Of a stretch of 63,029 bases of DNA, positions 44,232-62,039 are shown piece by piece. A program made the position numbers and the translations under genes. Under the pieces are notes generated by a model. That model was given only the letters and a program-made list of their open reading frames with translations. It was not told where the DNA came from and searched no databases. This DNA comes from Candidatus Omnitrophota bacterium (GTDB lineage: Bacteria > Omnitrophota > Gorgyraeia > Zapsychrales > Zapsychraceae): contig JAHJCZ010000155.1 in the NCBI GenBank assembly GCA_018812705.1, forward strand, positions 1-63,029. The letters run 5' to 3'. The first letter of the stretch is position 1. The number at the start of each line of letters is the position of its first letter.

Positions 44232-44546
44232 TTATTTAGCAGTGATTTTGGTAATGTTTAAAGCTGTAAGTTGTTGACGATGACCAACTTTTGTAGCTGA
44301 ATCTTTTTTAACTCTGTATTTAAAAGAAACGACTTTATCTCCCTGAGTGTGCTTTACAACCTTTGCTTCCACCTTAACATCATCAAGATACGGCTGACCA
44401 ATACGAATATCAGCACCGTTTGCAAAAGCTAAAACCTTATCAAAAACTAAAGTTTCGCCTTCCTTTTCTTTTATTCGGTTAGCATCAATAAAATCCCCTT
44501 CAGCAACTTTAAATTGTGTAGACCCTAATTGAACAACTGCGTACAT
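44232..44546 (-). CDS. rplU: 50S ribosomal protein L21
   Basis: MYAVV, IGQPY, GHRQ. Confidence 0.97.
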   Translation of the reverse strand: MYAVVQLGSTQFKVAEGDFIDANRIKEKEGETLVFDKVLAFANGADIRIGQPYLDDVKVEAKVVKHTQGDKVVSFKYRVKKDSATKVGHRQQLTALNITKITAK

Positions 44547-46309: not shown

Positions 46310-47725
46310 TTACAAATCAGCAGATATCTCGGGGGTAATGATAGTTGGTGTAATAAAGATCAATAAGTCAGTTTTATCAATATCCTTAGAAGTCTTGGTA
46401 AATAATTTTCCAAATATCGGGATATCTCCTAAAAATGGCACTTTTTTCTTTACATCTACTACTTTATCCTTAACTAAGCCGCCAATAACCAAAGTTTCAC
46501 CATCCTTAACCATAACTTTAGTAGAAGCTTGCTCAATACTTAGTTTTGGAACTGCAGAACCACTTGCAGCATCTGTAACATCACCTAAATTATCAGTTAT
46601 ACTTGGTTCAACATCAAGCGTAATGATCCCTGCAGCTAAACTAACATGCGGAGTAACTTTCAAGACTATTCCTATTTTTTTATACTCCCAGCCTGATAGT
46701 TGCCAGCTTCCGGTTTCGTCATTAAAAAACTTTAATGGATATGGGTGCTCAGTTCCCACATCAATCCTTGCTTCATGATTATCCAATGTGACAATTCTAG
46801 GATTAGAAAGAATATTCGTATCTGTTCTTTCTGCTAACATTTTGAACACCGCTTGTAAATTCGCAAAACTAAGAGTTCCATTAGTAATTGCAGAAGCAGT
46901 TGATGTTACTCCACCAGTATCTACATCCGGGTTGATATATTTATTATTCATTACAGGGGGTGTGAACGGAAATGTATGTGTTATGGAAGAACCCGTAACA
47001 GAAGCTTGCGTAGTCCATTCAATCCCAAGATGCTCACTATCATCTAAAACTGTTTCAATAATCTTACTTTCAATTAGAACTTGTGGAGTAGTAGCATCCA
47101 GGCCTTTAATGATTTTTGCCATTATAACTTGTTTGGTTGCTGTGTCTGTAACGATCAGAGTATTAGTTCTTTCATCGAAGTTAACGTTCCCTCTTTCTGA
47201 TTTCATTTTTTCAAGAGATTCGACGATCTCTGATGCCTTTCCAAAATTAAGCATAAATATTTCGGTCTCTAAAGGCTCTTGCTCCGAAAGAAGAAGAGAA
47301 TCCTCTCTTCTTTTTTTCATATCTTCAATAGTGGTAACAACGATTATATTTCCCTTTTGCTCATATGCATATCCATATGTTTGCAATATTACTTCCAGAG
47401 CTTGTTCCCAAGGAACATCCTTAAGTTGTATCGTAACTACCCCGACTACTTCAGGACTTGTAACAATATTTATACCACTTTTAAAAGCAAGTATTTTCAG
47501 GACATTCCTAATATCCGCTTCTCGGAAATCCAAGCTTACTTCCCCTCCATCAGACATCATAACATCATCTGCTGATTGAGAAGCATCCTCAACTTCAGAA
47601 CCAGCAGCATTTTGAGCATTAAGTCTTCCAACGTCTTTTTGGGCGAAAACACAATCAACTTTAACAAAAGAGAGCATCATAAATAACCCTAAGATTAAAA
47701 TTATCAATAGATTTTTCCTGGACAT
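46310..47725 (-). CDS. pilQ: Type IV pilus secretin (short, no AMIN domains)
   Basis: SLDFREADIR N0 domain, DERTNTLIV, QVLIESKIIE, LSNPRIVTLDN, VPFLGDIPIFG.LF; follows pilMNOP. Confidence 0.92.
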   Translation of the reverse strand: MSRKNLLIILILGLFMMLSFVKVDCVFAQKDVGRLNAQNAAGSEVEDASQSADDVMMSDGGEVSLDFREADIRNVLKILAFKSGINIVTSPEVVGVVTIQLKDVPWEQALEVILQTYGYAYEQKGNIIVVTTIEDMKKRREDSLLLSEQEPLETEIFMLNFGKASEIVESLEKMKSERGNVNFDERTNTLIVTDTATKQVIMAKIIKGLDATTPQVLIESKIIETVLDDSEHLGIEWTTQASVTGSSITHTFPFTPPVMNNKYINPDVDTGGVTSTASAITNGTLSFANLQAVFKMLAERTDTNILSNPRIVTLDNHEARIDVGTEHPYPLKFFNDETGSWQLSGWEYKKIGIVLKVTPHVSLAAGIITLDVEPSITDNLGDVTDAASGSAVPKLSIEQASTKVMVKDGETLVIGGLVKDKVVDVKKKVPFLGDIPIFGKLFTKTSKDIDKTDLLIFITPTIITPEISADL

Positions 47726-47726
47726 A

Positions 47727-48086
47727 TTAATCCTCCTTTTTTAACTGCAACTCAAAAATCTTGTTTCCTTTAATTAGATATACCTTTTCTCTTTTAATCT
47801 CATGAACAACAAAGTCACCTACCTTATCCTTAAGCTTAACAATTTTACCATTGATTATAGCAAGACTACTATCTCCATCACCTAGCATCACGCCCTCGAG
47901 AGATAAGTCAGAAATTGAAAGACTATCATCATAATTCTCAATAATGCCCTCAGTGCTTACCAAAGGCAGCATTGGGTCCCTTTTGCCTTGATCATCATAT
48001 TTTAAAATATCCTCTTCGGCAAAAGTAGCATTTACCGTCATAACGATCAAACAACAAACAATAATTGTAAATTTCATAAACCTCAT
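47727..48086 (-). CDS. pilP: PilP-like pilus assembly protein
   Basis: YDDQGKRDP..PL motif, L.GV...A.ING..V..G..V HR-domain pattern, synteny. Confidence 0.7.
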   Translation of the reverse strand: MRFMKFTIIVCCLIVMTVNATFAEEDILKYDDQGKRDPMLPLVSTEGIIENYDDSLSISDLSLEGVMLGDGDSSLAIINGKIVKLKDKVGDFVVHEIKREKVYLIKGNKIFELQLKKED

Positions 48087-48095
48087 ATATTATTC

Positions 48096-48698
48096 CTACT
48101 TTTTTCCTTTTAACTCCTCATAAACAACAGCATCCAATGTTATCTCCACTAAATGTTTTTTCTCTCCTCTTGATGATATGATCCCGAAAGAGCTCACTTT
48201 AAAGAATATGTCACCACGTTCAAGTTCACTTAAAAACCTTCCAAAATCATGATAACCGCTCGTAGCCTTAATAAATATTGGCAAGCTGTAATAACGCCTC
48301 TCCTCATTCTCTAATAATATTTGCTGATCTTGCGCATCCGGCATGATCTGATCGATTTTAACTCCATTGTCATCAGCCATTCGAGAAATATTTTCCAGAA
48401 TAAGAGGAACTTCTTCTTTAAATTTCAGTTTTGCATTTGATTTTGCTACATCATCACTTATTTTTGCAACTTCTAATTCGTACTGTTTTGATCTTAGGAT
48501 ATCATCTTTAGCTTTCTTAATATCTTCCGATAGCGATCGAATTTCTGGGCCGATCTTAGATAAAGAAGCTATCTGCGGCCTCATAAGAACAAAATAATCT
48601 AAAAGAAAGACTGAAAATAAGATGCCACCCAAAATATAGTAGATAACTTTTTCATCTACGCTTTCTATATAGGACGATATTTTGTTCTGCAATGTCAT
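48096..48698 (-). CDS. pilO: Type IV pilus assembly protein PilO
   Basis: N-terminal TM, coiled coil, EVP.ILE.I, YHDFGRFL..LE. Confidence 0.88.
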   Translation of the reverse strand: MTLQNKISSYIESVDEKVIYYILGGILFSVFLLDYFVLMRPQIASLSKIGPEIRSLSEDIKKAKDDILRSKQYELEVAKISDDVAKSNAKLKFKEEVPLILENISRMADDNGVKIDQIMPDAQDQQILLENEERRYYSLPIFIKATSGYHDFGRFLSELERGDIFFKVSSFGIISSRGEKKHLVEITLDAVVYEELKGKK

Positions 48699-49285
48699 TT
48701 TTTTCCCAATCTAGATGTTATTAAAAAATCAGCAACATCCACTTTCTTGATCTTTCTCATTTGTATTGAGCCTAATTCCAGATCCGTTAGATCCGTCAAA
48801 AAATTTTCATCTTGCTTAAGATTTGCAGTAAATTTATGTACTCCGATCATTTCTTTATTTTGTCTGGAGATTGCACTACCCTCTACAAAGAACGCATCTT
48901 CATTAAACGCTATCTTCCTTAGCCAAACCCCTTTGGGAAGGTTATCGCTTAAAATATTCATTTTCTGTGACCAAATGACCTTTTCCTCTTCTGTAAGTTT
49001 CTTTATTGCGCTTTGCTTTTTCTGAAGCATCCTAAGTTCACTGATCACAACATCAACTTTCTCTTTTTCCGGAGCGATCTCCTCCCAAGATAGTTTTAAT
49101 TTATTATGGGTTGCTAACTTAGACACATTAATGACAAGTAAAATAACATGAACCAAAAATAGCAATATGATTAATCCTCCACCTAGTCCAATAACTACCT
49201 CAAGAGGCAGCTTAAATCCTCCGACAAAGAAAACCTTCTTCTTTTTTTTCCTTAAATGTAACGGAACTAAATTGATCTCAATCAT
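48695..49285 (-). CDS. pilN: Type IV pilus assembly protein PilN
   Basis: IEINLVP PilM-binding motif, TM helix, LP.GVWL; start moved to ATG 49285. Confidence 0.9.
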   Translation of the reverse strand: MIEINLVPLHLRKKKKKVFFVGGFKLPLEVVIGLGGGLIILLFLVHVILLVINVSKLATHNKLKLSWEEIAPEKEKVDVVISELRMLQKKQSAIKKLTEEEKVIWSQKMNILSDNLPKGVWLRKIAFNEDAFFVEGSAISRQNKEMIGVHKFTANLKQDENFLTDLTDLELGSIQMRKIKKVDVADFLITSRLGKK

Positions 49286-50333
49286 ATTCATATAAAGCCA
49301 ATCCAAAGGCAACTCCCAGCTGAAGAGCCTTTTTGTTCAATTCATCAACATTTATTTCTGGTGAGACGCTTAAAGCCTTAAGTGGATTCCAACTTGCAAC
49401 TTCCATTTCTAAATTGTCCCCCAAAACATCAATGATACCGTCTAGCAAAGAGCCTCCACCAGTTACGAGCAATTTATTCACCTCTTTACTTTTTTCTGTG
49501 GAAAAATAATCAATAGACAACCTTAATTCCTGAACAATATTCATAAGAGTCGACTCACAAGCAGCTCGTACTTCACTAACTCTTTTCTCTGGTTGACATT
49601 TTAGCTTTTCAGCTTCGTCTAAACTAATCCCCAAGGTATTGCTTATTCTCTTTGTAAAATCAGTTCCACCTACAAAAATATCTCGGGTAAATCTTGGAGA
49701 TTTGTTTGCAATTATCATGAATGTGCTTACAGACTCTCCAATATCCAACAATGCCACTATTTCATCTTTACCTTCATCTTCTTTTTCTAATGAAAAATTC
49801 AAAGCATTGACCAATGCAGCTGGGTTCAAACCAATAAATTCTGCCTGGTATCCTAAGCTTGAAATAAGCTGCGTTCTCTGGTCAATCATCTCTTTTTTTG
49901 CTGCAGATGCCATAACAGCCATTTGCTTGCTCTTCTTGTCACCATCTAAAATATAACAATCTGTATAAATTTGATCTTGAGAAAACGGAAAATATTTATC
50001 AGCTTCTATAGAAAAAGAGTTGCGCATATCATCCAAAGCCATTCTAGGCATATCAATATAACGGATCAAAGTACCTTTTCCAAAAACAGCAGTATATAGA
50101 GTATGTGGCGGTTTTTTTAATTTTGCAATTAATGTCTTTATCGCTTCTGCTGTCCCATTTTTTCGTGAGGATTCAGTTGCCCAGCTAACTAACTCATACT
50201 CGTTATTCTCTTTTTTTATTTCAACTAACTTACAACTATTTAAACCAATATCTATTCCAACAGCTGTGCCTTTAGGCTTGTCAGGAAGAAATTTCTTTAT
50301 TATACCAAAATAGTTGTTTAGCAATGAATTCAT
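49278..50333 (-). CDS. pilM: Type IV pilus assembly protein PilM
   Basis: Actin-like VGIDIG, LDIGE, GG.DFT..I, LVTGGGS, A.GLAL. Confidence 0.93.
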   Translation of the reverse strand: MNSLLNNYFGIIKKFLPDKPKGTAVGIDIGLNSCKLVEIKKENNEYELVSWATESSRKNGTAEAIKTLIAKLKKPPHTLYTAVFGKGTLIRYIDMPRMALDDMRNSFSIEADKYFPFSQDQIYTDCYILDGDKKSKQMAVMASAAKKEMIDQRTQLISSLGYQAEFIGLNPAALVNALNFSLEKEDEGKDEIVALLDIGESVSTFMIIANKSPRFTRDIFVGGTDFTKRISNTLGISLDEAEKLKCQPEKRVSEVRAACESTLMNIVQELRLSIDYFSTEKSKEVNKLLVTGGGSLLDGIIDVLGDNLEMEVASWNPLKALSVSPEINVDELNKKALQLGVAFGLALYEYD

Positions 50334-50389
50334 CTTAACCTCAAAGTTTAAATAGTAAATAATCTATATACATATTATTAATACAACTA

Positions 50390-50418
50390 ATTGTATTGTA
50401 AGGCAATCTCTCTATCAA
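50390..50418 (-). promoter_or_regulatory. Sigma70-type promoter of pilMNOPQ
   Basis: TTGATA-17nt-TACAAT, 56 nt upstream of the pilM ATG. Confidence 0.55.
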
Positions 50419-50494
50419 GCAGTAATTCATAAATTATCATAATCCTTTGTTTCATCAAAAACAAACATTAAAAAATCCTTACAAATTATTCACT

Positions 50495-50531
50495 AAAAAA
50501 AAGAGAGGGCTTAAATAGCCCCCTCTTTTTT
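50495..50531 (-). terminator. Intrinsic terminator after the pilin gene
   Basis: AAAAAAGAGGGGGC-TATTTAA-GCCCTCTC followed by T8. Confidence 0.88.
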
Positions 50532-50555
50532 CAACAAACTGATTCTCAAACCTTA

Positions 50556-50951
50556 TTATTGCTGACTTAAAACTCCACCTGTTGTAACTGTAAAATGCGT
50601 AGTTCCTGATGTTCCAAGACTCATAGCATTTGCATCAAAAGTATAATAACCTGCATTAAACGTACATGCATAAGTAAAACCTGATGATGCCTGTCCACAA
50701 TAAGCTGCGTTAAGATAAGGTGGTGTTGCGCCGGTCAATGAAGCTTCCGCTCCTGGATACACACCATTTGCAGATGTTTGGAATGTTTCTGCCGCTGTTG
50801 ACATCGTCTTAAGCGTGCTTTGTGCTAATGCATCATTTGCTGAAATCTTAGCTCTTAGCAAGTTTGGAATTGCAATTGCTGCTAACAAAGCGATAATTGC
50901 AACAACGATCATGATTTCTACTAGCGTAAAACCTTTTTGGCTCATTCTCAT
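50556..50951 (-). CDS. pilA: Major type IV pilin (class III signal peptide)
   Basis: MRMSQKG/FTLVEIMIVVAIIALLAAIAIPN with G-1, F+1, E+5; two C-terminal Cys; strong AGGAGG SD; own terminator. Confidence 0.9.
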   Translation of the reverse strand: MRMSQKGFTLVEIMIVVAIIALLAAIAIPNLLRAKISANDALAQSTLKTMSTAAETFQTSANGVYPGAEASLTGATPPYLNAAYCGQASSGFTYACTFNAGYYTFDANAMSLGTSGTTHFTVTTGGVLSQQ

Positions 50952-51110
50952 GATACCCTCCTTCTGAGTTTGTGAGCTTAAAGTTTACATTTGCCATCCT
51001 AAGCTAAGACAAGACAAGATATATATAAGGATAATTACATTTACAAAATATCTTAGCTCTGCTACGCAAACGACTAACTTTTCGCTCAGATTAAGTTAAA
51101 ATTATGTTTG

Positions 51111-51140
51111 ATTCTACCACCTCCTTTCTTTCTTTGTCAA
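51111..51140 (-). promoter_or_regulatory. Proximal pilin promoter P2
   Basis: TTGACA-18nt-TAGAAT with extended -10 TGG. Confidence 0.6.
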
Positions 51141-51260
51141 TTCATTTATAAACTCATCATCTGTCTGCTTTCGCACCAAAACAAAACAAGGTGGGACAAA
51201 AAAGAATATTACCCTCATAAAAAAAATAACTATGTTTTTTTCCAATGTAGCCATTTTCAT
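51114..51260 (-). CDS. Putative 48-aa hydrophobic small protein downstream of the riboswitch terminator
   Basis: GAGGA SD 9 nt before ATG; MKMATLEKNIVIFFMRVIFFFVPPCFVLVRKQTDDEFINELTKKERRW*. Confidence 0.35.
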   Translation of the reverse strand: MKMATLEKNIVIFFMRVIFFFVPPCFVLVRKQTDDEFINELTKKERRW

Positions 51261-51274
51261 CACAAACAATCCTC

Positions 51275-51307
51275 AAAAAAAATCCCACTCCATTATAAGG
51301 AGCGGGA
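51275..51307 (-). terminator. Riboswitch expression-platform terminator
   Basis: TCCCGCTCC-TTATAAT-GGAGTGGGA followed by T8. Confidence 0.88.
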
Positions 51308-51321
51308 CCATAAAATTTCCC

Positions 51322-51404
51322 TTGTGGCAACTGGCTGTCCTATTTTCTCTTAGGACCCTATAGCTTTGTGCCCCATCCTTACGAATGGTTTACCATTTAC
51401 ACAA
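51322..51404 (-). ncRNA. Cyclic di-GMP-I (GEMM-I) riboswitch aptamer
   Basis: UUGUG-UAAAU-GGUAAACC-AUUC-GUAA-GGAU-GGGGCACAAAGCUAUAGG-GUCCUA..UAGGAC-AGCCAGUUGC-CACAA: P1 UUGUG/CACAA, GNRA tetraloop, AAAG junction, P3 stem. Confidence 0.9.
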
Positions 51405-51425
51405 CAAAATCAAACTTGCAGTTGA

Positions 51426-51454
51426 AGTATAACACCCGAAAATATGATTGTCAA
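51426..51454 (-). promoter_or_regulatory. Distal promoter P1 driving the riboswitch leader
   Basis: TTGACA-17nt-TATACT with extended -10 TGT, ending about 20 nt before the aptamer. Confidence 0.85.
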
Positions 51455-51474
51455 AAAATAACAATTATAAAAGC

Positions 51475-52497
51475 TTACTTGTTTTTAATTTCCTGAATTT
51501 GTTTCTCAAAATCAGAGACCTTCTTAAGCAACATCTTCTTTTCATTCTTGATCGCAACCAAATTTTCGATTAATTGACGCTCTCCCTCTTCCCCACTATC
51601 TAAATTCAAATTACTAGCCTTTAGTTTATCTTTAGCAATAGAAAGTATCGATTTCAGGCTGTCCTTTTGATCGTTTAAAGCTTTTATTTCCTTTAACAGC
51701 TCTTCCTTTCGGCTTTCTCTTTCTTCACTAACGTTTGAAATCTCTTTTTGTATTTTGTCCTCTTCTTCTAAAACAATCTTAAGCTCATCTTCAATTATCA
51801 ACAATTGCTGTTTTAAAAGACTTCTTTTTTTACTAACTTCTTCAGCTTCAGATAAAGGCCGAATATTATTATTTGTAACTTTGGTCAATTGCCTTTGCAA
51901 CGCTTCGATCTCATCCCCACTTGTTTCAATTTGTTCGATCAACTGCTCCTTAATATTATCTTCTGCACCTTTACTTTTTTTAATATTCAAATTATCGATC
52001 TTCTGTTGGACATCAACAATGTATTTATTGACTTTAGCAATTTCTTGGAGCACTTCGTCTTCTTTGGATCTCTTAGCATCTAAATTTTTCTCTAAATTCT
52101 GTTGCTCCCTGACCATTTTACTAACATCATTAGTTAGGCTGCTCGCGTTTTTCTCAAAGAATATGAGTTCTTGTTCTTCTGCATTTATATCATCAATGCT
52201 CGCATTCTGAACTATCCACTTCATTTTATCTTCTTCTAGACGTACTAACTCTGCCTTCAATGTCCGGATATTATCACGAAGTTTTTCATTTTCAGAGAAA
52301 AGCCATACGTTCTTCTGAGCAACTTCTTGTGCGCTATTTTTTAAACTTAACAAGCTATACTCAAGAACTTTTATTGCTGACAAATTTGCTCTTCTCTCTG
52401 CATAACAAAAATGAATATTAAACTGAATAAATATTATAGTTAGAAATAGAGCTTTTATCATTGTTGTTCTATAAACAATCTTAACACTTCTATACAT
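51475..52497 (-). CDS. Uncharacterised exported long coiled-coil protein
   Basis: Hydrophobic N-terminus ending CYA/E (start possibly ATG 52461), then about 300 aa of E/K/Q/L-rich heptad-like sequence. Confidence 0.75.
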   Translation of the reverse strand: MYRSVKIVYRTTMIKALFLTIIFIQFNIHFCYAERRANLSAIKVLEYSLLSLKNSAQEVAQKNVWLFSENEKLRDNIRTLKAELVRLEEDKMKWIVQNASIDDINAEEQELIFFEKNASSLTNDVSKMVREQQNLEKNLDAKRSKEDEVLQEIAKVNKYIVDVQQKIDNLNIKKSKGAEDNIKEQLIEQIETSGDEIEALQRQLTKVTNNNIRPLSEAEEVSKKRSLLKQQLLIIEDELKIVLEEEDKIQKEISNVSEERESRKEELLKEIKALNDQKDSLKSILSIAKDKLKASNLNLDSGEEGERQLIENLVAIKNEKKMLLKKVSDFEKQIQEIKNK

Positions 52498-52521
52498 AAT
52501 TAATACCTTCAGTAAACACGT

Positions 52522-53727
52522 TTATATTACTTGTGTAATGTTCAAAATAGGCATAAACAAAGCAATAACAATAAAACCAATAACGATACCAAGAACCCCT
52601 ATTATCAAAGGCTCAATAATGCTAGTCAAACCTTCAACTGCTGCGTCAACTTGATCATCATAAAATTCTGCTATTTTTAGAAGCATTTTTTCCATCTGCC
52701 CCGATTTCTCGCCAATGCTGATCATCCTTGTAACCATGGGTGGAAACACTTTGCTTTTACTTAATGGTGTCGCAATACTTTCTCCCTCGCGAACACAATT
52801 TTTTACATCTTCAACAACATCTTCTAGAACAGTATTTCCAATAGTCTTACCAACTATATCTAGAGATTCCAGAATTGGAACACCGCTTTGTATAAGCGTA
52901 GCAAGCGTTCTACTAAAACGACTAATCGCAACTTTACAAAAAAGCTCGCCAAAAAGAGGCATATTCAAAAGTGCGCCATCTATTGCACGCGCACCTTTTT
53001 CAGTTCTATACCATCTTCCAATAAGAAAAATTGCTATCACTAAAAAGCCAATTAGCCAAAGCAAATAACTTTTAAGCCCTTCGCTTATGCCAATTAACAT
53101 TTGAGTCATAGCAGGCAATTCCCTATCAAAAGAATCATATATACCAGCAAAAGTTGGAACAACTTTAACTAATAAAATAACCGTAATAATTGTCGCCATT
53201 GAAACAATTACTGAAGGATATATTAATGCAGCCTTGACTTTCCTTTGCAATTTAAGAGATTTCTCCATATATGTTGATATGCGGTCTAATACTTGGCTTA
53301 AAACACCACCAGTCTCTCCGACTCTTACCATATTTACAAAAAGAGTATCAAAAACATTAGGATGTTTATTGAATGCTGCAGAAAGACTTGCCCCATGCTG
53401 AATATCATCATAAACATTTGTTAGCACCTTTTGAAATAAAGGATGGGCCACTTGGTCTCGTAAAGCATCAATTCCTTGTAGTATAGGAATACCTGCATCG
53501 ACCATTGTCGCTAATTGTCTTGTGAAAATAACGATCTCATCAGGCTTTACTTTTTTTGATTGAAAAGAAGATCCAGGCGCTTTGGAATCCTTAATTTCAG
53601 CAACAGATATAATAACAAGTTTCTTTTTTCTTAAAGCTTCAATTACTGATTCTTTGTTATCAGCAGAAATCTTTCCGGAAACATTCCCTGATTCTGCATT
53701 CTTTGCAACATATTTAAACGTCGCCAT
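52522..53727 (-). CDS. pilC: Type IV pilus inner-membrane platform protein (GspF/PilC)
   Basis: FTRQLATMVDAGIP, GETGGVL, YP.VI, GEKSGQM, EPLII. Confidence 0.95.
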   Translation of the reverse strand: MATFKYVAKNAESGNVSGKISADNKESVIEALRKKKLVIISVAEIKDSKAPGSSFQSKKVKPDEIVIFTRQLATMVDAGIPILQGIDALRDQVAHPLFQKVLTNVYDDIQHGASLSAAFNKHPNVFDTLFVNMVRVGETGGVLSQVLDRISTYMEKSLKLQRKVKAALIYPSVIVSMATIITVILLVKVVPTFAGIYDSFDRELPAMTQMLIGISEGLKSYLLWLIGFLVIAIFLIGRWYRTEKGARAIDGALLNMPLFGELFCKVAISRFSRTLATLIQSGVPILESLDIVGKTIGNTVLEDVVEDVKNCVREGESIATPLSKSKVFPPMVTRMISIGEKSGQMEKMLLKIAEFYDDQVDAAVEGLTSIIEPLIIGVLGIVIGFIVIALFMPILNITQVI

Positions 53728-53813
53728 ATCGACCTTTCATGATAGTCATATTGTTTTCAAACCATAAGGGATTTTAGAGCGAATTACTCTAGCTTTTAAT
53801 TGAATAAGATGGT

Positions 53814-54272
53814 TTAATTTCCACCATAAACGTTATTCAATGCTTGATCAATTTCCATTCTAGTGGAAATAAAAGGCACTATTTCACAGCTTGTATCTTC
53901 CTTTAATTTTTGAATAAGCGAACTATCCAAAGGATTTGACATAACTATACTTAAAATATTACCAACACAATCTAACGGCACCAGATGGTGCTTGTAAGCT
54001 ACCTGTCTTGGAATGATATTCAAAACTTCTTTGTTTATTTCATACTGATCTATTGCGATATAAGGAAAATAACACTGTTCAGATAAAGCCGCAACAATAT
54101 CTTTTTCACTAACAAATCCCAGATTTGTTAGAATTTCACCAATGAATATCTTCTCCTTCTTCTGAAGCTTCAAAGCTCTGTTTAGCTGTTCTCTGACAAC
54201 AGTCTTTCTCTTAAGAAGAATCTCCCCTAAGCGACTTTTCTTTTGAACAAAATGTCCAGATAGAACAACCAT
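53814..54272 (-). CDS. Stand-alone MshEN (GspE/PilB N-terminal) domain protein A
   Basis: RLGEILL...QLNRALKLQ-x5-FIGEILTNLGFV...ALSEQ plus N1 subdomain; no ATPase; AAGGAG SD. Confidence 0.85.
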   Translation of the reverse strand: MVVLSGHFVQKKSRLGEILLKRKTVVREQLNRALKLQKKEKIFIGEILTNLGFVSEKDIVAALSEQCYFPYIAIDQYEINKEVLNIIPRQVAYKHHLVPLDCVGNILSIVMSNPLDSSLIQKLKEDTSCEIVPFISTRMEIDQALNNVYGGN

Positions 54273-54470
54273 GATCAGCTCCTTACATATCCATTCTCTG
54301 AATACTTATTTTACCACTAAATACATTCTTGGAAACAATAAACTTTGGTTTAGCAATATTCTAATAAAAAAATAAATTAAGCTCGCATAACAATTTTGAT
54401 AGCTCGCTACTAATTTACGGGTCACACCAGGTATTTCGTCTTTTTGATTTTGAAATATCTTTGCTTCAAT

Positions 54471-56177
54471 TTATTCATCCATAGCCACTCTTAATACTTC
54501 TTCAATAGTTATTTGTCCAGAGATGCATTTTTCAATAGCATCCTCCCAAAGAGTCACCATTCCATTGACCTCACACGCATGTCGTTTTATCTCATCAGAT
54601 GAGCATCCCCTTAATAACATATTCTTGATCTCATCTGTTACCTCTAGCACTTCCATCAAAGCCATTCTCCCAGAATAGCCTGTGCCACGGCAAGCCTCAC
54701 AACCTTTTCCATGATAGAAATCTGTATTTGGCTTGAATTTATAATCGAGCTTATCCAATACTTTTTTTGGTATCTCTACTTTTTCTTTACAGCGTTTACA
54801 AATTTTCCTACATAGTCTTTGGGCATTTACCAAAACAAGGCTAGATGCAACCAAAAATGGCTCAACTCCCATATCAACCAATCTTGTTAACGTACCAGCA
54901 GCATCATTAGTATGCAGTGTAGAAAAAACCAATTGCCCTGTTAAAGATGCTTTAACTGCTATGTCAGCTGTTTCATTATCACGAATTTCCCCGATCATTA
55001 CAATGTCAGGACTCTGTCTTAATACTGCCCTTAACCCTTCAGCAAAAGTCAATCCTATTTCAGGTCTGGCCTGGATCTGTGTCAATCCTTCAACCAAATA
55101 CTCAACTGGATCTTCAATAGTAATAATATTCTTATCAACCGTATTTAGCTCATTAATGATCGAGTATAAAGTTGTCGATTTTCCACTACCCGTAGGTCCA
55201 GTAACCAAAAACATACCAAACGGTTTAATAATGCCATTCTTTAAAACAGCCAGTGACTTTTCAGAAATACCTAAGCCATCAAGCCCAACAGCTAAGTTAC
55301 TTTTATCAAGAACACGCAAAACAACTTTTTGCCCAAATGTCGTAGGCAGAACAGAAACACGAAAATCAATTTCTTTTCCAGCGACCTTCATCTTAAAACG
55401 CCCATCTTGAGGAACATAATTTGAAGTTATATCTAACCTAGACATTATCTTTATTCTTACGATAACAGCATTCTGGTTTTCCTTTGGCAAATTCAAAATA
55501 TCTCTCAAAACGCCATCTATTCTATAACGAACTCTAACACCCTCTTCTGAAGGTTCAATATGAATATCAGAAGCTTTCTGCCTAATAGCTTCTTTGACAA
55601 TAAGATTGACCATTCGAATAACCGGGGCCTTCTCTCCATCATCTGCAGAACCACCACTTCCATCTTCTTCTTGGTCCATGACTATTTCAAAATCATCGAC
55701 CTGAATATCCTGAGTAATTTCAGTCACACTCACACTTTCCGGAACTCCGTAATAATTATCAATTGCCTTAATGATTTCCGTATTAGTGCTCATAACCACA
55801 TCGATATCTTTGCTAGTGATGCTTTTTAGATCATCAACAATAAAAACATCTAGAGGGTCTGAAAGAGCCACCGTAAGGGTATTCTCGAGCAGCGAAAGAG
55901 GAATTATTTTATATTGCCTTGCAACTCTCTCCGGCACGATCTCTTGCAAATAAGGATCGATCTTATATTTACTTAAATTAATAAAAGGAATATTTAACTC
56001 TCGAACAAGAAGCATCAAAAGGTCATCCTCGTTTATCAAACCTTGTTCGATCAAAGCTTTATCAAGACCAATATTCTTTCTCTTTTGCAAGACAATAGCA
56101 GCATCAAGTTCTTTTTTGCTGATCTGCTGAGTCTCAATAAGTGTATTTAATATTTTATCTTTTAATGTCTTTGTCAC
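54471..56177 (-). CDS. pilB: Type IV pilus extension ATPase, paralog 1
   Basis: GPTGSGKST, TIEDPVEY, MIGEIRD, STLHTND, CKRC/CEAC Zn site. Confidence 0.9.
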   Translation of the reverse strand: MTKTLKDKILNTLIETQQISKKELDAAIVLQKRKNIGLDKALIEQGLINEDDLLMLLVRELNIPFINLSKYKIDPYLQEIVPERVARQYKIIPLSLLENTLTVALSDPLDVFIVDDLKSITSKDIDVVMSTNTEIIKAIDNYYGVPESVSVTEITQDIQVDDFEIVMDQEEDGSGGSADDGEKAPVIRMVNLIVKEAIRQKASDIHIEPSEEGVRVRYRIDGVLRDILNLPKENQNAVIVRIKIMSRLDITSNYVPQDGRFKMKVAGKEIDFRVSVLPTTFGQKVVLRVLDKSNLAVGLDGLGISEKSLAVLKNGIIKPFGMFLVTGPTGSGKSTTLYSIINELNTVDKNIITIEDPVEYLVEGLTQIQARPEIGLTFAEGLRAVLRQSPDIVMIGEIRDNETADIAVKASLTGQLVFSTLHTNDAAGTLTRLVDMGVEPFLVASSLVLVNAQRLCRKICKRCKEKVEIPKKVLDKLDYKFKPNTDFYHGKGCEACRGTGYSGRMALMEVLEVTDEIKNMLLRGCSSDEIKRHACEVNGMVTLWEDAIEKCISGQITIEEVLRVAMDE

Positions 56178-57946
56178 TACTTCTTTTTATCCTCATCAGG
56201 TGCTGTCAATCTCAAAACTTCTTCTATTGTTGTTAACCCTTCTACGGCTTTCACCAAACCATCTTCTCTCATAGTCCTCATACCTTCTTGACGGGCAATT
56301 TGTTTAATCTTTATTTCGCCTACACGCGCCAATACAGCCTCTTTTACTTTTTGGCTAAAAACAAGGATTTCAGTAATACCAACCCGGCCTTTATAACCAG
56401 TATTAAAACAATGCTTACAACCTTTTGGCCTCATAACTTCAATATTCTGTTTTGGGTATAATTTATCAAGTCCTACTTTTGAAGTTATCTCAGGAGTAAC
56501 TATATACGACTCACAACATTTCGGACATACCCTTCTTAGTAGCCTTTGAGCAATGATAGCCAACACTGAAGAACATATTAAAAATGGCTCAATTCCCATA
56601 TTCATCATGCGGACTATTGAACCAGCAGCAGTTGTTGTGTGAAGAGAGCTCAAAACAAGGTGACCAGTTAAAGCAGCCTTAACAGCAATGTCTAATGTTT
56701 CTTTATCGCGAATTTCTCCTATCATAATAATATCTGGATCTTGTCTAAGAATTGATCTTAGGCTCGAGGAAAAAGTTAATCCCATTTTGGGTTTTATATT
56801 AACTTGAATGATCCCTTTCATCTGATATTCAACTGGATCCTCAACAGTAACGATATTCTTCTCAGGAGAGTCTACATACTTTAAAATGGAATAAAGTGTC
56901 GTCGTCTTACCACTTCCTGTCGGCCCACAAGTTAAAATCAAGCCATGTGGCTTCACTGAACATTCCTTTAAACGCTGCAAAGCTGTTTCTTCAAAACCTA
57001 AATTTTCAACATCAAGCACTGTTCCCTGCTGATCTAAAACCCTTAATACGATTTTCTCACCAACAGCCGTAGGCAAAACATTAACACGAAAGTCAACCTC
57101 TCTGTCCCCTGATATAATGGTCTTAAATCTTCCATCTTGAGGCAACCTGTGTTCTGAAATATCTAAATTTGAAATAACCTTTATTCTTGAAACCAAAGGA
57201 AAGTGCAACACTTTTGTCATTCGATCAATCTCTCGAATAACCCCATCAATTCTGTACCTAATGCGGACTGCTTTTTCTAATGGCTCAATAAACACATCGC
57301 TGGCTTTTGCAAAGACTGCTTGCTGGATAATCGTGTCAGTTAACTTAATAATTGGCGCCTCATCAGAGATTTCCTCAACAGATGACTGGCCATCGCTATG
57401 TCCATCTTTAATCAATTCAAGATCTTCAGTATCTCTAAAATCCTGGATTATCTCATCAAAGGTCTCACTATTTTTTTCCTGCTCTGGACTTTCCCTATCT
57501 TGCCCATCCTCCTGCTTAAAATAATATTTCTCAATAGCATTATGAATATCCGAAACCCTACATATAATTGGAATAATCGTATAGCCTGTCAGAGCTTTAA
57601 CATTATCTATGATAAATATATTTAATGGATCAGCCATCGCTAGGGTCAACTGATCTCCCAATAAAGAAACAGGTATAATTTGATATTTGATGGCGATATC
57701 TTTTGGAATAGTTTGAATTACATCTGGAGAAATATTGAAGCTAACGATCTTGATTAACGGCAGCTCAAGGCTTTCACTTAAAACTTGAGTCAATTGATCT
57801 TGACTCACAAAGTTCATTTCAACGAGTATCTTACTTAATTCCCCTCCTGCTCTCTTCTGCTCAAGTAAAGCTTTTTCAAGCTCCTTTGCAGTAATAAGCT
57901 CATCTCGAATAAGAATTTCTTTTAAACGATCTTTAAAAGATGCCAT
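56177..57946 (-). CDS. pilB: Type IV pilus extension ATPase, paralog 2
   Basis: GPTGSGKTT, TVEDPVEY, MIGEIRD, SSLHTT, CPKC/CKHC Zn site. Confidence 0.9.
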   Translation of the reverse strand: MASFKDRLKEILIRDELITAKELEKALLEQKRAGGELSKILVEMNFVSQDQLTQVLSESLELPLIKIVSFNISPDVIQTIPKDIAIKYQIIPVSLLGDQLTLAMADPLNIFIIDNVKALTGYTIIPIICRVSDIHNAIEKYYFKQEDGQDRESPEQEKNSETFDEIIQDFRDTEDLELIKDGHSDGQSSVEEISDEAPIIKLTDTIIQQAVFAKASDVFIEPLEKAVRIRYRIDGVIREIDRMTKVLHFPLVSRIKVISNLDISEHRLPQDGRFKTIISGDREVDFRVNVLPTAVGEKIVLRVLDQQGTVLDVENLGFEETALQRLKECSVKPHGLILTCGPTGSGKTTTLYSILKYVDSPEKNIVTVEDPVEYQMKGIIQVNIKPKMGLTFSSSLRSILRQDPDIIMIGEIRDKETLDIAVKAALTGHLVLSSLHTTTAAGSIVRMMNMGIEPFLICSSVLAIIAQRLLRRVCPKCCESYIVTPEITSKVGLDKLYPKQNIEVMRPKGCKHCFNTGYKGRVGITEILVFSQKVKEAVLARVGEIKIKQIARQEGMRTMREDGLVKAVEGLTTIEEVLRLTAPDEDKKK

Positions 57947-58395
57947 TATTTTTGTTTATAGTATTTATCAATGGATTGTTTAATATCACTAGACGTGCTT
58001 ACAAAGAACTGAACAATACATCCTGTAATCAGTTCAATGTCCTCTACTGATTTCACATTTAACGGATCAGACATTGCTATTGTTAAACTTTTACCTATCT
58101 TATCAATTGGGATCAGACAAAACTGTCTACAAACATTTTCCGGAATTGCATTGATCACTTCATCATCAATTTCATAATTTAGTAAGGGTAAATATGGGAA
58201 ACCATACTGACATGTTATTGCTTGCGCAATATCTTTCTCTGTGGCAAAATTCAATTCAACTAGAACTTCGCCTATCAGTCCACCATTCTTTTCTCTGTAC
58301 TCCAAAGCCTCTTCGATTTGAGCATGATTTATAACGCCTCTTTCTATCAGAAGCTCTCCCAACTTTTTATGAGTATCTCTGTTAAATTGTTTCAT
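57946..58395 (-). CDS. Stand-alone MshEN domain protein B
   Basis: KLGELLIERGVI...IEEALEYR-x5-LIGEVLVELNF...AITCQ plus N1 subdomain; no ATPase. Confidence 0.85.
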   Translation of the reverse strand: MKQFNRDTHKKLGELLIERGVINHAQIEEALEYREKNGGLIGEVLVELNFATEKDIAQAITCQYGFPYLPLLNYEIDDEVINAIPENVCRQFCLIPIDKIGKSLTIAMSDPLNVKSVEDIELITGCIVQFFVSTSSDIKQSIDKYYKQK

Positions 58396-58757: not shown

Positions 58758-59129
58758 TTATTCTTCGGTCAGTCTTTTAATGCTAGCAAGCAACTCCTCA
58801 GCATTGTAAGGTTTCATTAAATATTCATCAGCCCCTGCTTCATTCCCCCAGAACTTGTCGCTCTCTGAAGTTTTTGCTGTTAAAAGAATGACTGGAATAT
58901 GTTCTGTTTCAGCATCATCCTTGATCAGGCGGCAAACTTTATATCCATTTGGAGCCGGCATCATAACATCTAAAATCACTAAATCTGGCATATGTTCTTT
59001 TGTTAAACTTAAAGCCTCTTCTCCAGAAGCTCCAGTAATGACTTCGTATCCATTTGCTTTTAATCGTAAACTTATAACTTTAACAATTTCAGGCTCGTCA
59101 TCAATAATTAATATTTTTTTTCTAGACAT
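58758..59129 (-). CDS. Single-domain response regulator (receiver only)
   Basis: ILIIDDE, LVILDVMMP, LLTAK, YLMKPY. Confidence 0.95.
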   Translation of the reverse strand: MSRKKILIIDDEPEIVKVISLRLKANGYEVITGASGEEALSLTKEHMPDLVILDVMMPAPNGYKVCRLIKDDAETEHIPVILLTAKTSESDKFWGNEAGADEYLMKPYNAEELLASIKRLTEE

Positions 59130-59275: not shown

Positions 59276-59650
59276 TTATTTTTCACTTAAAATGTGCTTA
59301 ATAATATCTATACGGCTTACAACTCCAACAACCTTTTTATCTTTAATCACAGGTACTCTCTTTATATTTCTTTTAACCAACAATCTTCCTACATCTTCAA
59401 TCAAATCTTCCTCACTAACACCAATAACCTCACTCGCAGAAAACTCCTTAACCAATGCTTCAGTTGATCCAGTAAAATCATATGCCACTAAAAAATCCTT
59501 TTCAGTAACTACACCAACAACCTCCTCATTATCATCAACTACCATTAAGCCACTTATATTATTTGATAAAAGAAGCCGCATACCTTCTTCAATTTTAGCT
59601 TCCGGCTTTATAGTAATTACGTTAGTTGCCATGATATCCTTTACTTGCAT
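59276..59650 (-). CDS. Stand-alone CBS-pair (Bateman) domain protein
   Basis: VKDIM..VITI.P, ISGLMVVD...VVGVVTEKDF, IKRVPV....VVGVVSRIDI. Confidence 0.92.
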   Translation of the reverse strand: MQVKDIMATNVITIKPEAKIEEGMRLLLSNNISGLMVVDDNEEVVGVVTEKDFLVAYDFTGSTEALVKEFSASEVIGVSEEDLIEDVGRLLVKRNIKRVPVIKDKKVVGVVSRIDIIKHILSEK

Positions 59651-59705: not shown

Positions 59706-62039
59706 CTAAGTCAATCTTTCGATTAGATCTATTACAACATTAATATTACCAGTCTTTTCAATCACTGGAATTTCACCTAATTCACCACATTCTTCTCTAA
59801 CCTCACTCAAATGTTTATCAGTAAGAACAATTATTGGAATAATTGCCAGTTGTGAATTTTGTTTCAATCTTCCCAAAACTTCATATCCATTCATATTTGG
59901 CATAACAATGTCTAGCAATATCAAGTCTACTTGCTTTGTTTTCAAATAATCAAGAGCCTCCTCGCCATCAAAAACCTGCTCTGTAATAATATCGCGTCGC
60001 TCTAATCTTGATGAAAGCAACCTGCCGATCTGTGGATGGTCATCAACAATGAGAACCTTTTTCTTTCTTTCACATTCTTCTAACGCTCTTTCTTGTAATT
60101 CATTTTTGTTCAAGCCATCTCTAGGATGCATAACAAAACCGAATTTCACTTTTATTCCTAATGCATCTTTCATCATCGCAACTCTTTCCCGAACAACACT
60201 TTTTATCTTATCTAATAAAATCATTCCACCTTTTTTATCTGTATCAGCAAGGGCGATATGAATTGTTTCTTGATCATATAATATATATTTATCTGTTGTT
60301 CTCGATACTAATCTTGCCAAAATCTCAAAAACAATATTTATTATTTCATTTGCAAAAGCTTCTCCGAACTTTGTCCTGATCATATCCATTTCAAAAAAAC
60401 GAGCAATAATAAACACCGACTCCTTGTTCTTCATTCTTGCCTCTGTAAATATTTTCTCAACATCATTATCAAATGTTTGTTTTAATTTCAATTTACTTGG
60501 TAGAGTAAAAAAGAAATTTGTGCCCTTGCCTATCTCACTCTCTGCCCATATCTGCCCACCATGAAGATCTATTAAAGATTTACTGATAGTCAAGCCTAAC
60601 CCAGTGCCTTTTATACCTGGACCATGTATCCTCCCGAACTGAGTAAACTTATCAAAGAGCTTTGAAATATTATCCTTTTCAATTCCAACTCCTGTGTCTG
60701 AAACCCTGCATAAACATCCTCCACCTTGACCTGCAATCTCAAGTTCTATTTCCCCGCCTTCAGGTGTAAACTTATGCGCATTATTCAATAAATTTGTAAC
60801 GACTTGTATTATTTTCTCTTCATCAATAAAGAAAAACATCTCATTATCAGGGAATATCGTTTTAATCTTTTGCTGCTTTGTATCTAAAACCTTTTGGTAA
60901 TCATCAGTTATTTTATTCATTGTAGATTTTAGGTCCACAATGGTCTTTCTTAACGTGATCTCTCCAGATTCTATTTTCGAAATATCTAATAAATCGTTTA
61001 CAATTGTATGTAACCTGTGAAGATTGTCCTTCGAAGCATTTAAAAGCTCTTTTTGCTCTTCATTAATCTTCCCAACTACGCCGTCTAAAATAAGATTTAT
61101 GCACTCAGTTGAGATCGCAAGTGGAGTTCTTAGCTCATGAGAAACAGTAGAGACAAAATCGGACTTCAGCTGATCCAATTTCTTAAGTTCAAAATTCTTC
61201 CTTTCAAGGTTCTTATATAGGGTCTTAATTGACTCATTGGTTTTTTGAAGCCCCCAAGATTGTTGTTCTAGCTTATCTCGAGCATTAACTAAATCCTTTT
61301 CAGCATTCCTTCTTGCTGTAATATCGCTAAATGATTCAATACCGCCAATAATTTTGCCCTCATCATTTTTTAGGATATCAGCATTCTTAAGAATAGTTAT
61401 TCTGTCCCCATTTTTTTTCTTAATAGAACACTCAGTCTCAATGATCGGCTTCTCTACATCATTACTATAAAGCCCGCAGAAAGACTCGCAGGGATATTCA
61501 GAGAACATATTACATTTTTTACCAATAACTTCTTGAGATTTATAACCTGTTAGCTCTTCCGCTTTTTTATTCCAACCAGTCACAATTTTGTTTTCATTCA
61601 CCGTAAAGACAGCACTCGGAACAACTTTAAAAATACGCTCCAAATCCTTTTTTGCTTTAATTACAGCTTCCTCAGCACGCTTATATACTGTTATATCGCT
61701 CATTAAATGAATTGAACCTAATAGATCTTTATTATCATCAAAAAGAGGTGCCGTTTGAACAAAGAACCATTTATTAAAAAGAGGCTCCCAATATTCCTTT
61801 TTTTCATATTTTTTGGAGTCCTTTAACGCACAATATGGACAATCAGATATAGGTTCATCCTTACCATGCATGACCTCATAGCATTTCTTGTTCAAGAACG
61901 CACTTTCGTCCTTATCAGTAAATTTTAAAAATGCCTTATTCACTTTCTTTATTCCATGATCTAGATCAAGAATAAAAATAAATTCTTCTAAAGAATCAAA
62001 AGCGGGAGACCAAAATCGATTGTAATCAATGTTGTTCAT
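59706..62039 (-). CDS. Cytoplasmic hybrid sensor kinase: PAS-PAS-HisKA-HATPase-degenerate GGDEF-REC
   Basis: SHELRTPL, NLLNNAHKF, DTGVGI, GTGLGL; GGDEF-fold segment ...RTTDKYILYDQETI...HPRDG; REC VLIVDD/LLDIVMP; no TM helix seen. Confidence 0.88.
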   Translation of the reverse strand: MNNIDYNRFWSPAFDSLEEFIFILDLDHGIKKVNKAFLKFTDKDESAFLNKKCYEVMHGKDEPISDCPYCALKDSKKYEKKEYWEPLFNKWFFVQTAPLFDDNKDLLGSIHLMSDITVYKRAEEAVIKAKKDLERIFKVVPSAVFTVNENKIVTGWNKKAEELTGYKSQEVIGKKCNMFSEYPCESFCGLYSNDVEKPIIETECSIKKKNGDRITILKNADILKNDEGKIIGGIESFSDITARRNAEKDLVNARDKLEQQSWGLQKTNESIKTLYKNLERKNFELKKLDQLKSDFVSTVSHELRTPLAISTECINLILDGVVGKINEEQKELLNASKDNLHRLHTIVNDLLDISKIESGEITLRKTIVDLKSTMNKITDDYQKVLDTKQQKIKTIFPDNEMFFFIDEEKIIQVVTNLLNNAHKFTPEGGEIELEIAGQGGGCLCRVSDTGVGIEKDNISKLFDKFTQFGRIHGPGIKGTGLGLTISKSLIDLHGGQIWAESEIGKGTNFFFTLPSKLKLKQTFDNDVEKIFTEARMKNKESVFIIARFFEMDMIRTKFGEAFANEIINIVFEILARLVSRTTDKYILYDQETIHIALADTDKKGGMILLDKIKSVVRERVAMMKDALGIKVKFGFVMHPRDGLNKNELQERALEECERKKKVLIVDDHPQIGRLLSSRLERRDIITEQVFDGEEALDYLKTKQVDLILLDIVMPNMNGYEVLGRLKQNSQLAIIPIIVLTDKHLSEVREECGELGEIPVIEKTGNINVVIDLIERLT

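Follow-up and report, generated by a model that had tools for sequence, protein, structure and literature searches.

A catalytically dead GGDEF domain between the kinase and receiver parts of a pilus-linked hybrid histidine kinase of Omnitrophota, a candidate c-di-GMP receptor

What does a segment that resembles a GGDEF domain do between the catalytic and ATP-binding (CA) domain and the receiver (REC) of a histidine kinase? The question is raised by a gene near the end of a stretch of 63,029 nucleotides (the window, in what follows) from a Candidatus Omnitrophota bacterium (GenBank assembly GCA_018812705.1, contig JAHJCZ010000155.1, positions 1 to 63,029). A preliminary description of the window had read the segment as a degenerate GGDEF domain with an intact RxxD motif, the hallmark of the inhibitory site (I-site), and had proposed that it serves as a receptor for cyclic di-GMP (c-di-GMP). 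The analysis presented here supports that interpretation in part: a receptor role is the best reading of the sequence, not an established one. The gene and the parts of its product are as follows; residue numbers are those of the protein, and GGDEF* denotes the degenerate domain.

59706..62039, minus strand: gene of the hybrid histidine kinase, PAS-PAS-HisKA-HATPase-GGDEF*-REC, 777 amino acids (translation of the open reading frame (ORF), Pfam, 777-residue orthologues)
Within the kinase ORF, minus strand: first PAS-like region, N-terminal, about residues 10-120, with C53, C67 and C70
61308..61646, minus strand: second PAS domain, residues 132-244, with invariant C176, C184, C188 and C204 (Pfam PAS_9/PAS/PAS_4, alignment)
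60963..61166, minus strand: HisKA or dimerisation and histidine phosphotransfer (DHp) domain, residues 292-359, with the phospho-acceptor His301 in SHELRTP (Pfam, E 4e-15)
60495..60824, minus strand: HATPase_c or CA domain, residues 406-515, with intact N, G1, F and G2 boxes (Pfam, E 3.8e-28)
60057..60494, minus strand: GGDEF*, residues 516-661 (Pfam, family profile, AlphaFold2 (AF2), Foldseek)
60291..60302, minus strand: RTTD, residues 580-583, the RxxD I-site motif in the α2-β2 loop (alignment to RRSD of 4URG, AF2 secondary structure)
Within the kinase ORF, minus strand: KYILY, residues 584-588, the five residues between RTTD and DQETI
60261..60275, minus strand: DQETI, residues 589-593, in place of GG(D/E)EF on the β2-β3 hairpin
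60207..60209, minus strand: Lys611 on helix α3, at the position of the other basic residue that a primary I-site has (spacing, profile alignment)
59724..60056, minus strand: REC, residues 662-772, with D666/D667, the phospho-acceptor D710, T740 and K762 (Pfam, E 8.8e-22)

The product is predicted to be a soluble hybrid histidine kinase of which the kinase and receiver parts are both intact. The H-box His, the N, G1, F and G2 boxes and the DD, Asp, Thr and Lys of a receiver, by which hybrid histidine kinases are recognized, are all present. In an alignment of 13 core sequences His301 is invariant, as are N416, N420, D448, G450, G452 and GTGLGL of the HATPase_c domain; the receiver residues D666, D667, D710 and K762 do not vary in the family core either, T740 having been read from the window's sequence only. 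Two orthologues, 84% and 73% identical to the kinase, are each exactly 777 residues long, and this shared length confirms both the start codon and the architecture. The receiver begins right after helix α4 of GGDEF*, which runs through the basic stretch ERKKK into strand β1 of the receiver (VLIVDD) without a break, and the linker is nearly zero on the CA side as well as on the REC side. An AF2 model of the full 777-residue protein, made without an alignment, had a predicted local distance difference test (pLDDT) score of 35 and was unusable. K762 of the receiver lies in PVIEKTG (residues 758-764), where Thr-Gly and not the usual Pro follows the Lys; KTGGFE is found in most of the family, and as far as the sequence tells, this is an unusual β5-α5 loop for a receiver.

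Three independent lines of evidence show that residues 516-661 are a genuine GGDEF domain. Pfam matches PF00990 to residues 520-661 with an E-value of 3.3e-7 and 30.6 bits, above the gathering score of 23.8 bits. A phmmer search of the PDB with the single sequence finds the GGDEF domain of T. maritima (4URG/4URS, E 4e-3) in an alignment that pairs RTTD with the I-site motif RRSD and DQETI with GGDEF, and a family profile built from 63 domains matches 47 solved GGDEF sequences in the PDB, among them domains with E-values of 1.5e-23 to 1e-12. The best of these is 6D9M (1.5e-23), a GGDEF domain of Geobacter; others are GcbC (5EUH, 2.8e-18), PleD (8e-13) and WspR (1e-12). The AF2 model of GGDEF*, made with the 63-sequence alignment, reaches a pLDDT of 92.8 and a predicted template modelling score (pTM) of 0.87, and its elements follow each other as α0-β1-α1-α2-β2-β3-α3-β4-α4, the palm-like order of GGDEF domains, without the β-strand that these domains normally have after α4. 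When this model was compared with known structures by Foldseek, only GGDEF domains were found among the 50 top matches listed, with template modelling (TM) scores of 0.77-0.80 (about 0.80 for 4URG and 5EUH, and about 0.71-0.80 for PleD and WspR). The fold matches include the c-di-GMP-bound GGDEF structures 5EUH, 3IGN and 2WB4. A chance occurrence of RxxD is ruled out, since RTTD is in register with homologous I-sites in both the phmmer and the family-profile alignments.

Judged by its residues, GGDEF* cannot make c-di-GMP and is catalytically dead. None of the five residues of DQETI matches GGDEF: both Gly residues of the motif, the catalytic Glu and the Phe have been replaced, and the third residue alone is acidic (Glu, as in GGEEF). 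According to the phmmer alignment, the metal-binding Asp of strand β1 has become R547, the guanine-binding Asn R555 and the guanine-binding Asp N564, positions that correspond to D327, N335 and D344 of PleD. The K/R of the phosphate site has also been replaced, as is seen by comparison with the genome's own ten catalytic GGDEF domains, all of which retain D-x-D-x-F-K-x-x-N-D together with GG(D/E)EF or AGDEF. Across the family the columns of the active site (A-site) rank 86-145 of 147 for conservation and are thus randomised; within the motif, columns 589-592 rank 86-140, and column 593, the Phe position, ranks 8 and stays hydrophobic. On the fold of the segment, on its degenerate and catalytically dead character and on the position of RTTD exactly five residues before DQETI, the preliminary description proves correct, the spacing to the residue. 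The strings that it quoted are all in place (FGEAFANEII at residues 558-567, RTTD at 580-583 or nucleotides 60302-60291, DQETI at 589-593 or nucleotides 60275-60261, and FGFVMHPRDG at 633-642).

The domain combines a degenerate A-site with an RxxD motif five residues upstream of the former GGDEF motif, the combination seen in receptor-type domains. Lys611 lies 22 residues past the first motif residue (D589), as R794 does in SgmT, and the family profile pairs it with the Arg of 'aeRIr' found in 6D9M and 4URG; R390 of PleD is the matching position, and the spacing of RxxD is that of PleD as well. The second Arg of the I-site had been left unread in the preliminary description; the residue at its position is a Lys. 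Among 100 family members column 611 holds Arg in 72 and Lys in 17, which makes 89 with a basic residue. Of the ten catalytic GGDEF domains that the genome encodes, nine have RxxD and eight have R or K at column 611. To judge from these sequences, a Lys at 611 is normal in this lineage and common in the RxxD-bearing active cyclases of the genome.

For the analysis of conservation 98 domains were used, which fall into two subfamilies, A with 58 domains (52 of them non-redundant), to which the window's domain belongs, and B with 40. In the non-redundant set of subfamily A, D583 is conserved in 92% and ranks first of the 147 columns, column 611 is basic in 83% (rank 18), and R580 is Arg in 67% (rank 20); nearly all columns ranked above 611 and R580 are hydrophobic core, Gly or Pro. 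RxxD is retained in 26 of the 30 nearest relatives. The I-site is thus held among relatives while the A-site drifts, as would be expected of degenerate GGDEF domains that act as receptors, and its conservation is incomplete. The window's domain has the sequence features expected of this class of I-site receptors, except that its second basic residue is a Lys. In subfamily B (P0082-P0145, kinases of about 667 residues) a conserved hairpin, RWQRGEM, is found where RYGGDEF would be expected, which suggests that in these kinases the dead hairpin serves a new and conserved function.

The kinase belongs to a family with a characteristic core. A word-indexed homologue search with the domain alone found two close orthologues only; the family was recovered by an exhaustive search of representatives together with a profile of the core. 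When 1.8 billion representatives were searched with the domain alone, 33 matches were obtained at E<=1e-3, and the best 20 or so of these share HisKA-HATPase-GGDEF*-REC behind varied N-terminal sensors, which in the family are PAS, GAF, REC or long regions that received no annotation here. Counted from the H-box up to the C-terminus, the core measures 494-497 residues in 12 of 13 members and 488 in the thirteenth. With its profile, over 100 cluster representatives were retrieved in which Pfam finds HisKA, HATPase_c, GGDEF and Response_reg; those that are named come from Candidatus Omnitrophota/Omnitrophica or Candidatus Aureabacteria, and Omnitrophota are in the majority. Loci from species genomes are mainly of Omnitrophota, with single metagenome-assembled genomes of Aminicenantales and Deltaproteobacteria; the patterns used in that search were taken from the H-box and the start of REC and returned mostly ordinary hybrid kinases from many phyla, so that the dozen or so loci with GGDEF* are unsuitable for measuring phyletic spread. 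A family-type domain (>=140 bits) is present in 8 of the 41 genomes of the window's order, 7 of them within its own family of 25 genomes. In some members the protein ends with GGDEF* and the receiver match lies downstream of the ORF (L025, L031, L017, L014, L019, L023, L016, L030, L035, P0006 and P0009). The existence of members without a fused receiver indicates that GGDEF* goes with the kinase and that fusion of the receiver is optional. A literature search returned no description of the HisKA-HATPase-GGDEF*-REC architecture; the family is conserved, uncharacterised and pilus-linked, and it occurs in an uncultured phylum.

The sensor part of the window's kinase contains clusters of invariant Cys residues, namely C-x13-C-x2-C in the first PAS region (residues 53-70, about nucleotides 61830-61881) and C-x7-C-x3-C-x15-C in the second (residues 176-204, about nucleotides 61428-61514). 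Such clusters are seen again in the PAS regions of the distant family members P0005, P0012, P0013, P0015 and P0021. They suggest that a metal or an Fe-S/redox cofactor provides the primary input signal.

Several known proteins resemble the kinase in part. SgmT of Myxococcus xanthus, with the layout GAF-HK-REC-GGDEF, binds c-di-GMP via the I-site of a degenerate GGDEF domain in which R763-HPD766, G772 and R794 are found and the motif reads GGGVF (PMC3509222). It is encoded by an orphan gene, its partner is the DNA-binding regulator DigR, and binding of c-di-GMP leads to spatial sequestration, a change in kinase activity not having been shown for SgmT (PMC3509222). SgmT and the window's protein are alike in being soluble hybrid kinases: each begins with a sensor domain for small molecules, has its kinase and receiver parts intact and contains a GGDEF domain of which the A-site is dead. 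They also agree in the spacing of RxxD and in the basic residue at +22 (R763/D766/G772/R794 in SgmT, R580/D583/D589/K611 here), and each is linked biologically to type IV pili. They differ in that GGDEF* stands between CA and REC and not at the C-terminus, that the sensors are PAS-PAS and not GAF, and that single-domain receivers in a pilus operon take the place of DigR as likely partners; SgmT has GGGVF, whereas no motif residue matches GGDEF here. The order PAS-PAS-HK-GGDEF*-REC, which Pfam confirms, had been called a different one in the preliminary description. An orthologue of SgmT was rejected on account of the different domain order and partner, sequence orthology beyond the shared domains not being shown.

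The position of the domain is that of the regulatory domain of ShkA. In this kinase of Caulobacter crescentus, c-di-GMP on a domain between CA and the receiver switches the kinase on by liberating the receiver (PMC6969517). Here too, a dedicated non-catalytic domain lies between CA and a phosphorylatable receiver, a position that fits the logic of a latch. In ShkA, however, the domain in the middle is a pseudo-receiver (Rec1) with a ligand site unrelated to RxxD, and ShkA feeds an Hpt-TacA relay for the cell cycle, not pili; since the middle domain has a GGDEF fold here and position alone is shared, membership of the ShkA type was rejected. PopA of Caulobacter and PelD of Pseudomonas are described in PMC3509222 as proteins with a dead A-site and RxxD-dependent binding of c-di-GMP, the output of which is protein localisation or activation of a partner. 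They share the degenerate A-site and RxxD with the window's protein, and neither is a kinase (PopA is REC-REC-GGDEF, PelD a membrane GAF-GGDEF protein). In PleD and WspR a c-di-GMP dimer at the I-site immobilises domains by cross-linking. These have the same fold and the three I-site positions, and they provide a model for how the receiver could be held in place by a ligand. As active enzymes they have REC N-terminal to GGDEF, whereas here there is no catalysis and REC is C-terminal. The kinase thus falls within the GGDEF fold family and among the hybrid kinases, and belongs to neither the SgmT nor the ShkA family.

The kinase gene stands at the head of a type IV pilus cluster that is complete and lies on the same strand. 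The features of this part of the window are the following.

59276..59650, minus strand: CBS-pair protein, 124 amino acids (Pfam CBS)
58758..59129, minus strand: single-domain response regulator, 123 amino acids (Pfam REC, E 4e-28)
46310..58395, minus strand: type IV pilus cluster (Pfam, Rfam), in the order MshEN-only protein, PilB, second PilB, MshEN-only protein, PilC, 340-residue unknown, c-di-GMP riboswitch, pilin, PilM, PilN, PilO, 119-residue unknown, PilQ
57946-58395, minus strand: MshEN-only protein, 149 amino acids
56177-57946 and 54471-56177, minus strand: PilB genes, tandem paralogues, each with its own MshEN domain
53814-54272, minus strand: MshEN-only protein, 152 amino acids
51475-52497, minus strand: ORF of 340 amino acids between PilC and the riboswitch, no significant Pfam match
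51322..51403, minus strand: c-di-GMP-I-GGC riboswitch aptamer upstream of the sole pilin gene (Rfam RF03167)
47727-48086, minus strand: ORF of 119 amino acids between PilO and PilQ, no significant Pfam match
44232-44546, minus strand: L21 gene
43231-44226, minus strand: obg

The gene order kinase, optional CBS-pair protein, one or two receivers and pilB-pilC-pilin recurs in seven other loci from at least six genera: G001 (84% identity of the kinase), G003, G010, G013 and G024 (35-47%) and the metagenome loci L001 and L005. All eight pilus-linked kinases, that of the window included, have RxxD (RTTD twice, RSID, RPQD, RPLD, RQAD, RSDD and RPSD). In the stretches fetched for L007 and L012 there are no pilus genes; L007 keeps RxxD as RKAD, and L012 has HPED. 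One or two single-domain receivers follow the kinase in 9 of 10 related loci examined, and in L004 the receiver lies upstream. The 123-residue receiver of the window aligns without gaps to the fused REC with 34% identity, and it is the likely phosphotransfer partner of the kinase. A CBS-pair protein of about 125 residues directly follows the kinase in six loci of different genera (the window, L001, L004, L008, L010 and L011) and is possibly an adenine-nucleotide-sensing accessory of the kinase system.

Elsewhere in the locus there are predicted sensors of c-di-GMP. The aptamer in front of the pilin gene scores 61.5 bits against RF03167 (gathering score 59, E 9e-13) and is found in the closest relatives as well (L001, 18229-18310; L011, 1133-1214). 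Four proteins of the locus have MshEN domains. By eye, the tandem motif for c-di-GMP binding is nearly matched in the 149-residue MshEN protein (KLGELLIERGVI...L..R, then LIGEVLVE...Q), and in the MshEN domain of the first PilB (RLKEILIRDELI...L..Q) both Gly residues of the motif have been replaced. The 2.7-Mb genome yields 10 strong GGDEF, 4 EAL, 16 PilZ and 3 Hpt matches, and its sets of GGDEF, EAL and PilZ domains imply that c-di-GMP is made, degraded and widely read in the organism. The 340-residue ORF is 74% identical in G001, and L001 has a counterpart of the same length at the same position. Beyond the cluster, the L21 gene and obg are separated by 5 nt with no L27 gene between them, the usual order being rplU-rpmA-obg.

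With the above in mind, a pocket formed by R580, D583 and K611 most likely binds c-di-GMP, probably as an intercalated dimer by analogy with other I-sites. Whether such binding gates the phosphorelay of the kinase, with the logic of SgmT in a ShkA-like position, is a proposition to which we give an even chance; the binding of the ligand is inferred, and so are the latch and the direction in which it would act. Because GGDEF* is joined to CA and REC with almost no linker, the ligand is proposed to position the receiver: c-di-GMP at R580/D583/K611 would fix the receiver relative to the phospho-histidine (DHp) bundle or release it, or alternatively it would cross-link the two chains of the kinase dimer. 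The share of phosphate that goes to the fused receiver and to the stand-alone receiver encoded two genes downstream would change, and the receivers would pass the signal on to the PilB-driven type IV pilus encoded next door. More tentatively, and with distinctly less than an even prospect of being right, the family can be seen as a hitherto undescribed class of hybrid kinases of Omnitrophota that are gated by c-di-GMP and devoted to type IV pili. A recycled product-inhibition site would then serve as kinase-receiver latch, a counterpart of the ShkA pseudo-receiver that evolved independently and from a different fold, and within a single locus c-di-GMP would control the pilus through the phosphorelay, through MshEN/PilB and through the pilin riboswitch, three levels in all. 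A dead GGDEF domain as receptor is a principle already well known; what is new lies in the architecture, in the phylum and in the three layers of c-di-GMP wiring that one pilus locus combines.

Several observations weigh against a c-di-GMP receptor. The window's protein has Lys and not Arg at 611. RxxD is intact in 40 of the 58 domains of subfamily A and in 53 of all 98, the Arg having gone from 18 of the 58, and subfamily B has RxxxD, shifted by one residue, in 20 of its 40 domains and RxxD in 13. Loss of R580 is not associated with loss of the basic residue at 611, which is present in 15 of 18 domains with a broken RxxD and in 34 of 40 with an intact one (Fisher p = 1). Joint loss would be expected of one functional pocket and is not seen, which weakens the I-site argument; position 611 stays basic irrespective of whether the I-site is intact, perhaps for structural reasons. 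The Asp of RxxD and 'RI(K/R)' on helix α3 are conserved in GGDEF domains generally, so that part of the I-site signal is inheritance. As the Asp is general and 611 varies independently of RxxD, R580 is the sole I-site residue whose conservation is specifically informative, and its signal in the alignment is real yet incomplete. The riboswitch was not found in five more distant kinase-pilus loci and is limited to the closest relatives (L001 and L011). The GGDEF domain of FimX (3HVA) is among the PDB matches of the family profile, and FimX, LapD and CsrD are not known to bind c-di-GMP through their degenerate GGDEF domains.

Much of this would also fit the main rival to the receptor reading, a structural module without a ligand, in which the domain is a rigid spacer, or an element for dimerisation, by which CA and the receiver are kept at a given distance and geometry, and in which RxxD and K611 are inherited or structural. 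The constant core length of 494-497 residues, essentially free of linkers on both sides of the domain, would be explained, and so would the mostly hydrophobic, Gly and Pro character of the best conserved columns, the loss of R580 in about a third of subfamily A, the basic residue kept at 611 independently of RxxD, and the generality of the RxxD Asp. Versions without a receiver (P0006, P0009, L025 and others) add that the domain belongs with the kinase itself. However, a GGDEF fold is not needed for spacing, the locus is otherwise full of c-di-GMP sensors, and structure alone hardly explains why the A-site drifted to randomness while an Arg in a surface loop holds at 67% (87% in the 30 nearest relatives, and 8/8 in the pilus-linked kinases). 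A spacer is regarded as rather unlikely, although it deserves to be taken seriously.

A receptor for something else, be it another nucleotide ((p)ppGpp, GTP, cGAMP or c-di-AMP) or a protein partner (CBS or MshEN), bound at the relic I-site or at the remodelled hairpin, is improbable. Structures of PleD with (p)ppGpp beside c-di-GMP (9G85, 9G86) are among the fold matches, the best PDB match of the family profile is the Geobacter domain 6D9M, the RWQRGEM hairpin of subfamily B points to a new function there, and the CBS-pair protein accompanies the kinase in six loci. Nothing direct indicates any of these alternatives, though: the residues by which the A-site holds GTP are all gone, the hairpin is not conserved in the window's subfamily, and RxxD with a basic residue on α3 is a signature specific to c-di-GMP I-sites. 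That GGDEF* is still an active, unorthodox diguanylate cyclase has a negligible probability. A few cyclases with imperfect motifs, such as AGDEF, are reported to be active (PMC3974145), but here no residue of the GGDEF consensus is left, the metal, guanine and phosphate-site residues have been replaced, the C-terminal β-strand is absent from the AF2 model and the family has random residues in its A-site columns. An active enzyme was rejected on these grounds, the motif, the metal and guanine ligands and their conservation all being gone.

In conclusion, the window's kinase carries a dead GGDEF domain for which a receptor of c-di-GMP is the best reading. To our knowledge, few kinases are under direct regulation by c-di-GMP, CckA, ShkA and SgmT being the main cases, each with a different site. 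If the receptor reading is true, a dead cyclase domain in the place where ShkA has its latch would be a second, independent solution to c-di-GMP gating, and it would give a rule by which a phosphorelay gated by a second messenger can be recognized from the I-site domain that lies between its CA and REC. If binding fails, the family would still show that the GGDEF fold has been reused in kinases as a rigid module between domains. The cells of Omnitrophota, an uncultured phylum, are very small, and their pili are suspected to act in attachment; with its pilus-linked gene order across several genera of this phylum the family would be a handle on when these cells build pili.

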